Numbered from the stretch's first letter, positions 25,060 through 28,449 are shown. The stretch is DNA of 40,888 nt from a virus (IMGVR_UViG_3300013458_000003:1-40888), one strand, 5' to 3'. Notes: generated by a model from the letters alone, not told the origin. Numbers and translations: made by a program.

Positions 25060-26511
25060 ATGTTAATGACAAGAAAGCAAGCTGAGAAATGGTTAGATAA
25101 CTCAGAAGGTAGACAATACAATGCAGATGGTTATTATGGTTTCCAATGTTACGATTACTCGAAAATGTATTTCTATGTTGTGACAGGTGAATGGATAAGT
25201 GGACTTAAAGCATCTAATATTCCTTTTGACAACAAGGCTAAAATTGAAAAGTACGCTACGATCATTAAAAACTATGATAGTTTCTTACCTCAAAAAGGTG
25301 ATATCGTTTGTTTCCCTGATAAATATGGTGGCGGATATGGACATACTGCAGTTGTAACTAGAGCCACACTTACACAGTTTGAGGTACTCGAACAAAATTG
25401 GTTTGGGAATGGTTGGACAGATGGTGTCGTTAAACCCGGATGGGGTCCTGAAACAGTGTCACGTCGTTGGCACTATTACGACAACCCTATGTACTTCATC
25501 CGTTTTAACTTTCCTAAAAATGTTAACGTGGTTAAGAAAGCAAAACGAAAAATTACTTCTAAAAAAGCAAGTGGAGAAATCAAACGTAAGAAAATTATGA
25601 TTGTCGCTGGTCATGGTTATAATGATCCGGGTGCAGTTGGTAATGGCACAAATGAACGTGACTTTATTCGTAAGAATCTAACGCCTAAAATCGCTGACTA
25701 CCTACGCAAAACAGGACATGAAGTTGCATTATATGGTGGTAGTAAGCAATCACAAGATATGTATCAAGATACAGCTTACGGTGTCCGTGTAGGTAATAAG
25801 CGTGATTATGGTATGTATTGGGTAAATAAGCAAAGCTATGACCTTATCGTTGAATTCCATTTAGACGCAGCAGGTGCTAGTGCAAGTGGTGGACATGTTA
25901 TCATCTCAAGTGCATTTAATGCAGATAGTATTGATAAAGATATACAAGAAGTCATCAAAGAGAACTTAGGACAAATCAGAGGTATCACTAAACGAAGTGA
26001 TTTACTCCATGCTAACGTATCGGCAGAAATCAACATGAACTATCGTTTAGCAGAGTTAGGTTTCATCACTAATAAAGAAGATATGGACTGGATAAAGAAA
26101 AATAGCGACAAGTACGCTAAATTAATTGCTGGTGCTATTCATGGCTCTCCTATTGGTGGTGTCGTTGCTAGTAAGAAGAAATCATCTAGCAAGAAATTGA
26201 ATGTACCTAAAACTATCCCTAGTGGATATAAACTAAATAATAAAGGCGTACCTTATAAGAAAGAAAAAGGTCGCTACACAGTAACAACGATTAAAGGTAA
26301 TAATGTTAGAACAACATACTCAGATAAAGCAGAAATCACAGGCACATTACCTAATGGAACTGAAATTATCTATGATGGTGCTTTTGCAGTGAATGGCTAT
26401 CGTTGGATCACTTATCTAAATAATGACTTACAACGTCGCTATATTGCCACAGGTGAGATTGATAAAAATGGTAAGCGAACAAGTTCTTATGGTAAATTCA
26501 GTAGAGTATGA
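25060..26511 (+). CDS. Endolysin: CHAP endopeptidase + N-acetylmuramoyl-L-alanine amidase + SH3b cell-wall-binding domain
   Basis: N-terminal YGFQCYDY....GHTAVV is the CHAP Cys/His motif. Central MIVAGHGYNDPGAVGNG is amidase_3-like. C-terminus is SH3_5-like. Confidence 0.9.
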   Translation: MLMTRKQAEKWLDNSEGRQYNADGYYGFQCYDYSKMYFYVVTGEWISGLKASNIPFDNKAKIEKYATIIKNYDSFLPQKGDIVCFPDKYGGGYGHTAVVTRATLTQFEVLEQNWFGNGWTDGVVKPGWGPETVSRRWHYYDNPMYFIRFNFPKNVNVVKKAKRKITSKKASGEIKRKKIMIVAGHGYNDPGAVGNGTNERDFIRKNLTPKIADYLRKTGHEVALYGGSKQSQDMYQDTAYGVRVGNKRDYGMYWVNKQSYDLIVEFHLDAAGASASGGHVIISSAFNADSIDKDIQEVIKENLGQIRGITKRSDLLHANVSAEINMNYRLAELGFITNKEDMDWIKKNSDKYAKLIAGAIHGSPIGGVVASKKKSSSKKLNVPKTIPSGYKLNNKGVPYKKEKGRYTVTTIKGNNVRTTYSDKAEITGTLPNGTEIIYDGAFAVNGYRWITYLNNDLQRRYIATGEIDKNGKRTSSYGKFSRV

Positions 26512-26552
26512 TATAATCAGTAAACATTAACCTATTTTTTCACACATTTTAC

Positions 26553-26583
26553 GGGACAAGTTTAGTGCTTGTCCCTCTTTTTT
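26553..26583 (+). terminator. Rho-independent terminator of the lysis operon
   Basis: GGGACAAG-tttagtg-CTTGTCCC followed by TCTTTTTTT. Confidence 0.75.
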
Positions 26584-26584
26584 T

Positions 26585-26910
26585 ATGTTATAATAAAAAT
26601 ATGAAATGGTCATTCTTGAAATGTACTCAGATTAATCTTCATGCTTTGCATGGAGGTTTTTTTGTGGCCGACATCAATGTCGGTCGCAAATATGTTATAA
26701 TCAAATAGAAATTGCGGTACACATCTGAGGAGTGTATCTGAGTATAACTGTTGCGACGGTTATCTCTTTTTATGTTATAATAAAAGTGCAGATCATTTTA
26801 GAATATCTGTGGCTGTTAGGCAGTTTAGGGGTATTCTTATAAAAGATACTGTATCTTAAAAGAAGCTACCTAATATGTCACTGGGTAGCTTTTTATGTTA
26901 TAATAAAGAT
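26585..26910 (+). repeat. Four dispersed copies of TTTTTATGTTATAATAAA (26585, 26691, 26771, 26894), three immediately preceded by a hairpin
   Basis: The motif contains an extended -10 TGTTATAAT. Hairpins lie at 26553-75, 26672-87, 26745-60 and 26867-90. Confidence 0.6.
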
Positions 26911-26969
26911 ACCCAGTTTATGATAATTTTAGTTTTATTATTTGTGTTTTAAATGAGTAAATCGTTCAA

Positions 26970-27000
26970 ACCGTACCTTAACAGGTGCGGTCTTTTTTTA
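26970..27000 (+). terminator. Rho-independent terminator
   Basis: ACCGTACC-ttaaca-GGTGCGGT followed by CTTTTTTTA. Confidence 0.55.
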
Positions 27001-27010
27001 TGCATAAATA

Positions 27011-27058
27011 TATGGAAGTACACACACTATACATTGGTTGATTGTGCATACTTCCATA
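27011..27058. other. Candidate attP core: 48-bp imperfect inverted repeat immediately 3' of the serine integrase gene
   Basis: TATGGAAGTAcacaca ... tgtgcaTACTTCCATA. The outer 10-bp arms are perfect and the spacer is about 16 bp. Confidence 0.4.
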
Positions 27059-27063
27059 AAATA

Positions 27064-28449
27064 TCAGTAGAACTCGATATCCTTTATTTTAAGGGAACGA
27101 CGTTTCTTTTTGTTATCATTCTTACCTAATACATATTCGATAAATATATTCTTTATCGCCATTTGAATAAATTCAGCTTTTTCTTCATCACTTGAAATAT
27201 CCCACATCTCAAGTAACAAGTTTTTGTACTGTTTTATATCTTCGGTGTCATACTGCTTAACCTCTTCATTCTCACTTTGCTTTTTATATTCTTCGATTGC
27301 TATATCTGTTTCTTCAATCAATTCGGCCAACTCATCTTCATTCATAAGTCCGTTAGCATATAGCTTATGGTATCTTTTTCGTTGCTGCATAATTTTGTTG
27401 ATATCGATTGTAATTTCTTTTTCTTCCTTATCCTCAACGATGTCATATTGCGTTAAATCTTGATGTTGTAGATACTCATAGAACACTCGTTCTACTTCTT
27501 CGGAACGTATATACACAGGTTTTAAATTTGGTGTCTCTTTGCAATTATTGCAGTAATAGTGCTTGTTATAATACACTCTATCTTTCAGTGTTACCTTATG
27601 AGTATTCATCGTTAATTTACTATCACAAACAGGACAAACTAATTTACTTCTGAATATAGATACGTGCTTTATCTTTTTAGTATTCGTTCGTTCTTCTAAT
27701 CTATCCTTAACTTTCTCGTACATTTCTTCAGTAATAATAGGCTCGTGGTTATTCTCTAGATAAACGCCACCCCATTCAAAGTGTCCTCTTGTAAACGGAC
27801 TTCTCAATGCTCGTGTGATTGACCTATCTTCCCACTTTCTATTGTTTGGTGGTGGAATATCTGAATTATTTAATTTCCGTGCTATCGATTTAGCGCTTTT
27901 ACCTTTTAACGCCTCCTCATAAGCAAATAACACAACCTCTTTATATTTATTAGGCACAAACTTATTATCGACACGATCATAATAAAACGGTGGAGTAGTC
28001 AGCATGATACCTTTTTTAAGTGCTGCAAGTTTACCCATTTGTGTACGTTCTCTAATCGTTTCACGTTCCCATTCAGCCATTGCACCGACTAATGTGACAA
28101 ATAATCGTCCCATTGCAGTTGAAGTATCATATACTTCTGTTGCGCTTCTAAAAGCTACATTATTCTGTTCAAATATCTCTAGTAAGTCCAATAAGTCACG
28201 TACATTACGTGTAAGCCTATCTAACTTGTACACTAAGATTAAATCAAACCGTTTAATATCATTCATCATTCGTTGTAATTCTGGTCGGTCACGTTTAGCA
28301 CCAGAGAAACCAGCGTCAACAAATACATCAGCTACATTCCAATCATTTATTTCACAAAATGATTTAAGTTTCCGTTCTTGTTCTTCAATAGAATAGCCAT
28401 GTTCTTTTTGCTCTAGTGTACTAACACGACAATATATTGCTACGTTCAT
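27064..28449 (-). CDS. int: Large serine recombinase (integrase)
   Basis: 461 aa. N-terminal resolvase domain IYCRVSTLEQ....YKLDRLTRN, followed by large recombinase and zinc-ribbon/coiled-coil regions. GAGGTGA RBS. Confidence 0.9.
   Translation of the reverse strand: MNVAIYCRVSTLEQKEHGYSIEEQERKLKSFCEINDWNVADVFVDAGFSGAKRDRPELQRMMNDIKRFDLILVYKLDRLTRNVRDLLDLLEIFEQNNVAFRSATEVYDTSTAMGRLFVTLVGAMAEWERETIRERTQMGKLAALKKGIMLTTPPFYYDRVDNKFVPNKYKEVVLFAYEEALKGKSAKSIARKLNNSDIPPPNNRKWEDRSITRALRSPFTRGHFEWGGVYLENNHEPIITEEMYEKVKDRLEERTNTKKIKHVSIFRSKLVCPVCDSKLTMNTHKVTLKDRVYYNKHYYCNNCKETPNLKPVYIRSEEVERVFYEYLQHQDLTQYDIVEDKEEKEITIDINKIMQQRKRYHKLYANGLMNEDELAELIEETDIAIEEYKKQSENEEVKQYDTEDIKQYKNLLLEMWDISSDEEKAEFIQMAIKNIFIEYVLGKNDNKKKRRSLKIKDIEFY

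Follow-up and report, generated by a model that had tools for sequence, protein, structure and literature searches.

The lysin–attachment site (att) spacers of Staphylococcus aureus prophages provide the closest described counterparts of the locus analyzed here. In prophage phiNM2 of strain Newman, this position is occupied by a "condensed sRNA cluster" of small RNAs (sRNAs), srn_9342–srn_9346 (Bronsard et al. 2017, PMC5496865). These were identified by TEX-RACE as independent primary transcripts, with intervening gaps of only 20–23 nt and with the primary 5′ ends of srn_9344 and srn_9345 lying 151 nt apart, and the cluster also holds two antisense RNAs (PMC5496865). Its organization was called Newman-specific, and a TATAAT box goes unmentioned (PMC5496865). 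In prophage phi12, a distance of about 50 bp separates sprX2 from SprY, which is expressed independently (Le Huyen et al. 2021, PMC8501977); regulatory roles have been demonstrated for SprX and SprY, which act in trans on the host RNAs RNAIII, spoVG, and ecb (PMC8501977). Here, we analyzed a 40,888-bp stretch of viral DNA (IMGVR_UViG_3300013458_000003; the whole stretch is referred to below as the window), focusing on the spacer between its endolysin gene and its attP-like sequence. The window represents a temperate phage of coagulase-negative staphylococci and has the S. hominis phages StB12 and StB27 and the S. haemolyticus phage IME1318_01 as its nearest relatives. We conclude that the spacer is probably a string of five autonomous sRNA genes on the lysin strand (units 0, A, B, C, and D, of about 60, 65, 64, 107, and 89 nt, respectively).

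Junction motif and predicted units of the spacer

The exact 18-mer TTTTTATGTTATAATAAA occurs three times in the window, always on the plus strand (at 26580, 26767, and 26890), and 0 of 100 dinucleotide shuffles of the window contained any match to it. Its inner 15-mer, TATGTTATAATAAAA, occurs four times (at 26584, 26691, 26771, and 26894, with spacings of 107, 80, and 123 nt). The four copies listed in an initial annotation of this DNA (at 26585, 26691, 26771, and 26894) are thus real for the 15-mer, and the 18-mer is exact in only three of them. The second one (26688–26705, AAATATGTTATAATCAAA) is not a full copy: it differs from the 18-mer at four positions, is missed at three mismatches, and has only TATGTTATAAT in common with it. 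As the same annotation had anticipated, the 18-mer is not a genome-wide terminator tail; the window held zero further copies even at three mismatches, and that explanation of the motif was rejected.

The core of the motif, TATG-T-TATAAT, fits TRTGnTATAAT, the "−16 region/extended −10" of Gram-positive sigma-A promoters. Promoters of the −16/extended −10 type reportedly function without a −35 element (Voskuil and Chambliss 1998). Five TGNTATAAT boxes are located at 26509, 26586, 26693, 26773, and 26896, the last four each directly 3′ of a hairpin, and they represent five of the eight TGNTATAAT sites of the whole window, concentrated in 396 bp (26509–26904). The first box, an extended −10 of sequence TGATATAAT at 26509–26517, was absent from the initial annotation, and its TGA is the stop codon of the lysin gene. 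In PH15, BE20, and three other loci (L006, L015, and L040), a −10 likewise overlaps the stop codon, and in S. aureus phage SAP1_TA-2022 (L092 2066–2074), the final codons (V-L-stop) of a small helix-turn-helix (HTH) gene are formed by TGTTATAAT. The predicted features of the array are given below; unit starts were predicted at about 7 nt past each TATAAT.

26509–26517, plus strand: P0, candidate extended −10 promoter TGATATAAT at the end of the lysin gene
26524–26584, plus strand: unit 0, about 60 nt; unstructured leader, lysin terminator hairpin (26553–26575), T-run
26580–26597, plus strand: junction 1, exact 18-mer TTTTTATGTTATAATAAA, with P1 (TGTTATAAT) at 26586–26594; aligns with the phiNM2 srn_9345 promoter
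26601–26665, plus strand: unit A, about 65 nt; 5′ hairpin (26608–26627), terminator (26634–26658) plus U7
26661–26690, plus strand: hairpin 2, 13-bp stem without a T-run, just upstream of P2
26693–26701, plus strand: P2, TGTTATAAT, in the partial second copy of the motif
26708–26771, plus strand: unit B, about 64 nt; short 5′ tail, hairpin (26716–26738), terminator (26740–26766), U5
26767–26784, plus strand: junction 3, exact 18-mer, with P3 (TGTTATAAT) at 26773–26781
26788–26894, plus strand: unit C, about 107 nt; long irregular hairpin (26788–26852) including the AAGATACtGTATCTT palindrome, terminator (26860–26894)
26890–26907, plus strand: junction 4, exact 18-mer, with P4 (TGTTATAAT) at 26896–26904; 10/12 with TG in the promoter scan
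26911–26999, plus strand: unit D, about 89 nt; AT-rich body, conserved stretch AAATGAGTAAATCGTTCAA, terminator (26970–26991) plus T7

The first, third, and fourth copies of the motif do lie directly 3′ of plus-strand hairpins with T-runs (26553–26575, 26740–26766, and 26860–26894), as had been described; the hairpin before the second copy (26661–26690) has no T-run, and the real terminator of unit A is at 26634–26658, followed by U7. The units are contiguous, and each has a Rho-independent terminator of its own. Every unit folded better than its own shuffles (z from −2.2 to −6.1), with values of −15.4 kcal/mol (z = −6.1) for unit 0 and −35.5 kcal/mol (z = −4.3) for unit C, and hairpin 2 folded with −19 kcal/mol (z = −5.1). 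A simple terminator scan found six sites in 1.5 kb, against 0.9 ± 1.0 expected. Other details of the initial annotation needed correction. The TTGCGA proposed as a −35 element for the third copy, at a distance of 16–17 bp, is separated from its TATAAT by 19 nt (26751–26756 to 26776–26781), and this spacer rules it out as a usable −35 for P3. The GGAGG-like tracts belong to stems or loops, with no conserved start codon after any of them. The palindrome listed at about 26837 was confirmed and lies at 26843–26857.

On the minus strand of the array in the window, only weak promoter matches were observed (9/12, no TG). One more plus-strand TGTTATAAT, at 27564–27572, lies within the integrase gene in antisense orientation; no terminator precedes it, and it is probably a chance occurrence. 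A scan of IMG/VR for TATGTTATAAT pairs showed TATGTTATAAT to be a general strong Firmicute promoter, mostly joined to a TTGACA −35 in other phages; therefore, the motif alone is not diagnostic, and the terminator context is.

The array is bounded by the following genes and sites:

25060–26511, plus strand: endolysin gene (open reading frame [ORF] call; Pfam domains CHAP, Amidase_3, and SH3_5), left boundary of the array
27011–27058: attP-like inverted repeat with 16-nt arms, 88% complementary, centered at 27034/27035, right boundary of the array
27064–28449, minus strand: large serine recombinase (integrase) gene, convergent with the array (Pfam domains Resolvase, Recombinase, and Zn_ribbon_recom)

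All units of the spacer are on the plus strand, which is the lysin strand, and the array lies between the endolysin gene and the att site, as in the lysin–att sRNA clusters of staphylococcal prophages. To judge from the end-points of the matches, the GenBank records of StB12 and StB27 are linearized at the center of the attP-like repeat (27034/27035).

Comparison with mapped sRNA genes of S. aureus prophages

A TTTTTATGTTATAAT junction occurs twice after the amidase gene of phiNM2 (L093 2136 and 2288, 152 nt apart), each time directly after a terminator hairpin, and it has the same composition as in the window, a terminator T-run plus TGTTATAAT. We placed the published sRNA ends on this sequence with a single offset (L093 position = Newman position − 1,139,373), which was inferred from coordinate differences; under this offset, three 5′ ends and four 3′ ends of the phiNM2 sRNAs land on plausible sites. 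The mapped starts of srn_9344 and srn_9345 fall 6–8 nt past the TATAAT of the two junctions, and the sRNA 3′ ends fall in terminator T-runs; the srn_9342 start, located within the amidase gene, follows a weaker −10-like TAGGAT instead of a junction. The published 5′ end of the antisense srn_9343 (L093 ~2280) is about 8 nt from the palindromic TTATAA core of the second junction, a core that the window junctions also carry, and, by analogy, the junctions may fire weakly in the opposite direction too. In phi12, SprX2 (Rfam, 190 bits) is preceded by a hairpin, a T-run, and TGTTATGAT, with TTTTTATGTTATACT after it. Because the junction matches those of both phiNM2 and phi12, its grammar is that of known, validated prophage sRNA genes.

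The similarity of unit A to the 5′ end of srn_9345 (= S808) covers the promoter and the first ~35 nt (A/GTGAAATGGTCATTCTTGAAATG...) and ceases thereafter; beyond this point, a short terminator takes over in the window, IME1318_01, L205, and L213, and L040 and one S. borealis prophage retain the long srn_9345-like body. The 5′ hairpin of unit A occurs in other phages as a compensatory variant (GTCATT/AATGAC vs GTTGTT/AACGAC). The alignment suggests that unit A is a short relative of S. aureus srn_9345/S808. Together with the phiNM2 junctions and the comparisons of unit B given below, these findings back the proposal of the initial annotation that tandem modules, each a terminator fused to an extended −10, give short independent transcripts.

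The phiNM2 cluster and the window array share their place, from the lysin amidase to the att site, the lack of a plus-strand ORF, and a series of contiguous plus-strand sRNAs, predicted in the window, with the same TTTTTATGTTATAAT junction after terminators. In contrast, phiNM2 has no counterparts of units B, C, and D, and its units are 131–314 nt long compared with 60–107 nt in the window; neither the 33-aa peptide nor the antisense RNAs srn_9343 and srn_9346 have a recognizable equivalent in the window, and the window phage has a coagulase-negative Staphylococcus host and a serine recombinase integrase. No named S. aureus homologue of unit B, C, or D was found by Rfam scans or by a string search of the literature. 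The SprX2/SprY pair of phi12 is likewise made up of adjacent independent sRNA genes downstream of the phage lysin, with similar flanks around SprX2; however, the window contains no sequence member of SprX (RF02672), and functional roles are demonstrated for SprX and SprY only. The SprX model matched the window at 26867–26912 with 15.7 and 13.3 bits, against a gathering score of 80, and membership was rejected, the weak match stemming solely from the generic terminator-type hairpin of unit C. An Rfam scan of the region, 12 related loci, and the C/D junction gave no family at threshold.

The presence of a 33-aa secreted peptide, srn_9343, encoded in phiNM2 on the strand opposite srn_9344, raises the question of whether the units encode tiny peptides or type I toxin–antitoxin cassettes, as the initial annotation had offered as an alternative. 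The candidates are a leaderless 35-aa ORF at 26601, an 18-aa hydrophobic ORF with a GTG start at 26786, and a 10-aa ORF at 26920; unit A is predicted to start at an ATG, and the peptides of units C and D would be hydrophobic. The initial annotation was right that 26553–27000 contains no ORF of at least 60 aa (the longest, 26565–26708, has 47 aa), and the short ORFs on the transcribed strand are unconserved and lack a Shine–Dalgarno sequence. The 35-aa ORF crosses a strong terminator and the next promoter, and its homologues stop after seven codons in phiNM2 and two codons in L007 and run past the usual stop in L205. The two versions of the 10-codon ORF of unit D give unrelated peptides, unit B carries a frame-breaking indel, and the small ORFs have zero Pfam matches. 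For a toxin–antitoxin cassette, neither a conserved ORF on either strand nor an arrangement of Shine–Dalgarno sequence plus start codon was found in the region, and no antisense partner was present; the minus strand inside unit C or the body of unit D contains no ORF of at least 20 aa, and the srn_9343/srn_9344-type cassette, present in IME1318_01 and PH15, is absent from the window. We consider the peptide and toxin explanations very improbable and rejected them on the grounds of unconserved frames and missing Shine–Dalgarno sequences and Pfam matches.

The spacer could also be a stack of terminators, or insulator, that stops late-operon read-through into attP, in the antisense direction into the integrase gene, or into host DNA in the lysogen; in that case, the TATAAT boxes would be incidental AT-rich sequence after the U-tails, and no meaningful RNAs would be made. 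All six hairpins, five of them with T-runs, are indeed oriented as the late operon and convergent with the integrase gene, terminator-like sites are enriched relative to shuffles, and units 0 and A are hardly more than terminators. However, a perfect TRTGnTATAAT stands at a fixed distance from conserved unit starts in dozens of phages, the primary 5′ ends mapped in phiNM2 agree in position with the same junctions, and the body of unit B (its first hairpin and loop), which a mere terminator would not need, is conserved across genera. As the whole explanation, a terminator stack is therefore rather improbable; such a stack and an sRNA array can both be true at once.

Unit B and the variable unit content of related phages

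Unit B is the best supported of the five units. An exact 16-mer scan of IMG/VR, combined with a model (R1) and BLAST, retrieved 44 IMG/VR loci in addition to named phages and prophages, about 50 temperate phages or prophages altogether. They include phages PH15, E72, BE20, IME1318_01, IME1367_01, phiIPLA88, and IMEP5, the S. pseudintermedius phages DS3 and DS12, the Mammaliicoccus phage phi6255, and two S. borealis prophages; the staphylococcal hosts of the phages are S. epidermidis, S. haemolyticus, S. warneri, S. aureus (phiIPLA88 and IMEP5), and S. pseudintermedius. Model R1 describes an RNA of about 64 nt with a short 5′ tail, a 9-bp hairpin with a UNNG loop, and an 11-bp terminator, directly after a −10 box, and the window copy scores 91.2 bits with it. 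Nearly all copies begin one nucleotide after a TGNTATAAT-type −10, and the sequence upstream of the promoter varies: some copies have a lysin terminator there, others hairpin 2, and others the final codons of a small HTH gene.

Across 42 distinct sequences of unit B, 98.5% of the cells of the two helices pair, compared with about 40–44% in register-shifted controls, and double (compensatory) changes affect three pairs (10 cells). The covariation score was 0.167 against 0.145 ± 0.006 in shuffles, with 0 of 500 shuffles reaching it, and comparable values were obtained from an independent MAFFT alignment. Coding is ruled out by a one-base indel in the terminator loop that disrupts every reading frame. 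The loops are nearly invariant except for two tetraloop positions (UGCG, UGAG, UGUG, UUAG, and UAAG), a pattern that suggests sequence-specific recognition. These comparative data identify unit B as a conserved, unnamed family of structured phage RNAs.

Some copies of unit B occur in unusual settings. In phi6255, a 133-kb phage, the copy (L243 813–964) lies 6 nt after a tRNA-Pro gene, without a TGNTATAAT box, which suggests cotranscription with the tRNA. Another copy was found with staphylococcal-phage-like sequence in OR842880.1 (44303–44382), recorded as "Xanthomonas phage SU1", whose host label or assembly looks questionable. A 42-kb S. hominis "plasmid" record (NZ_CP031279.1, 26910–27028) matched units A and B at ~81% identity and may be a phage-plasmid or a mis-binned or mis-assigned phage or prophage; in the plasmid collection, short matches to the 5′ part of unit A and this one record were the only hits.

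The remaining parts of the array are more restricted or more variable. Hairpin 2 precedes the promoter of unit B in numerous phages, where it shows compensatory changes (C-G to T-A in IME1318_01), and could be an operator or a 3′-end stabilizer; in PH15-type loci (L003 ~1470–1540), three direct repeats of TTTCTAGTAG precede it. For unit C, a homologue search found one other full copy, in L040, which is 92% identical and likewise follows unit B; in a pattern scan of IMG/VR for unit C, nearly all matches were due to chance, and L040 was the sole true copy. Across phages, unit D has one of two 22-nt bodies, equal in length, and one of two terminators around AAATGAGTAAATCGTTCAA; the window, L002, L189, L193, L194, and L195 show different combinations of these around the constant 19-mer. 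Unit 0 is a candidate only.

As the initial annotation had predicted, the number of units varies among relatives. A total of 49 non-identical staphylococcal loci carried 124 TGNTATAAT units of 37 families, with one to five units per locus in varying order, so that the five-unit string of the window is at the top of the range; most of these loci were fetched via unit B, and the share of unit B (33 units) is therefore inflated. The spacer of IME1318_01 contains unit A, hairpin 2, and unit B, followed by a different unit, and PH15 and BE20 have unit B in other surroundings. In StB12, the lysin terminator and a single junction lead straight into unit D. That junction combines the left flank of window junction 1 with the right flank of window junction 4 (alignment A3); the difference between the two phages is therefore a 310-bp block (A+B+C) with a direct repeat of the 18-mer at either end. 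The alignments thus point to the junctions as the places where units are gained or lost. A lysin-based scan of the species genome collection yielded eight loci and sampled the diversity of genomic prophage ends thinly. One 456-bp contig of a Corynebacterium kefirresidentii assembly (L203, NZ_NGUZ01000089.1), with a coding fragment 76% identical to the window lysin, is probably contamination.

With a promoter and terminator of their own and a presence that varies among related phages, the units resemble classical morons, autonomous promoter–gene–terminator units set between conserved phage genes, and they likewise occupy the lysogenic-conversion locus. They differ in carrying short non-coding RNAs instead of protein genes and in being stacked head to tail with shared junction sequences. 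In another explanation, the units are decayed moron cassettes, shells of promoter, 5′ leader, and terminator that remained after loss of a protein gene and that are neutral, although perhaps transcribed. In L198 and L200, TGTTATAAT is followed by AGGAGG and ATG, the same promoter there driving small protein genes, and PH15 ph30 and coding sequences (CDSs) of StB12 are further promoter-driven small protein genes. Unit A retains only the first ~35 nt of srn_9345, unit C is near-unique to the window phage, and unit D is a patchwork. However, unit B is nearly intact in ~50 independent contexts in several host species, with structure-preserving changes; the arrangement of unit A, hairpin 2, and unit B recurs in IME1318_01, L205, and L213; and the S. 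aureus counterparts SprX and SprY are functional regulators (PMC8501977). Decay is thus an unlikely explanation of the array as a whole. Neutral shells are plausible for units A, C, D, and 0 and not for unit B, and they, like a terminator stack, may account for individual units with the overall picture unchanged.

Proposed mechanism and implications

In the model that we favor, that of five autonomous sRNA genes, each unit would begin about 7 nt past an extended −10/"−16 TRTG" sigma-A promoter (TATG-T-TATAAT) without a usable −35 and would stop at its own intrinsic terminator. Because the U-tail of each terminator runs directly into the next promoter, the 15–18-nt junction of T-run plus TGTTATAAT ends one gene and at the same time begins the following one. 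In a lysogen, where the late operon is silent, the junction promoters, at the attR end of the prophage, would yield non-coding RNAs that are short and stable; the five promoters would fire independently, and the RNAs would be stabilized by their terminators. By analogy with SprX, SprY, and srn_9342–9345, the unit RNAs probably act in trans on host RNAs or proteins, which would amount to lysogenic conversion at the RNA level. As the units are bracketed by the same junction, homologous recombination there would add, delete, and reshuffle them between phages, and we infer that recombination at the junction repeats mediates this exchange of cassettes.

Several points weigh against this model. Transcription in the window phage is predicted, promoter use being deduced from sequence features and S. 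aureus homology. Compared with the validated srn_9345, unit A is shortened, and it may be a remnant; unit C, with one other copy, and the mosaic unit D are without covariation support; and unit 0 is little more than the lysin terminator. The covariation of unit B is modest because most copies are >80% identical, and recent horizontal spread could explain part of its conservation; moreover, the sampled loci were mostly found via unit B, which biases its frequency upward. A search of the B-containing loci for a co-varying partner of the unit B loop returned only the self-match on the opposite strand. Elsewhere in the window, the longest perfect complement of any unit was 11–13 nt, the same as for shuffled units, and nothing points to antisense regulation of phage genes by the units.

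The novelty implied by the initial annotation does not extend to the layout itself, clusters of such sRNA genes in S. aureus prophages being already published. Its other suggestion, that this is a moron locus missed by ORF-based annotation, is borne out by the comparative evidence. The literature searched contained no description of such arrays in coagulase-negative staphylococcal phages, of a shared junction rule, or of the unit B family, and no match to the literal sequence strings of the junction, unit A, or unit B. A transcriptome survey reported a general lack of sRNAs in the prophage regions of S. epidermidis and S. carnosus (PMC5343137). The present comparison suggests the opposite, namely, that a common junction grammar marks lysin–att RNA genes in the temperate phages of both S. 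aureus and coagulase-negative staphylococci. In annotated phages and prophages, this spacer is either empty or populated by spurious tiny CDSs, and a terminator T-run followed by TGNTATAAT offers a simple rule for finding such RNA genes. In BE20 (L004 761–2215), the deposited record has eight tiny CDSs in the spacer, labeled "hypothetical protein", and one of them overlaps unit B; these are probably over-annotated RNA units.

More tentatively, we propose jointly that unit B is an undescribed cross-genus RNA family that binds a specific factor and that the junction is a crossover site for trading RNA-gene cassettes, a combination that is possible, if still doubtful. The loop sequences AUCUGNGGAG and UGUUGCGACGG of unit B would then be conserved beyond structural need; if the combination is true, unit B would bind a specific host or phage factor (e.g., as a decoy, sponge, or immunity RNA) rather than act as a generic sRNA, and the lysin–att spacer would be an exchangeable library of regulatory RNAs shared across the genus. 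Widespread, conserved, and only ~64 nt long, unit B would be a good subject for studying how prophages reprogram skin staphylococci.

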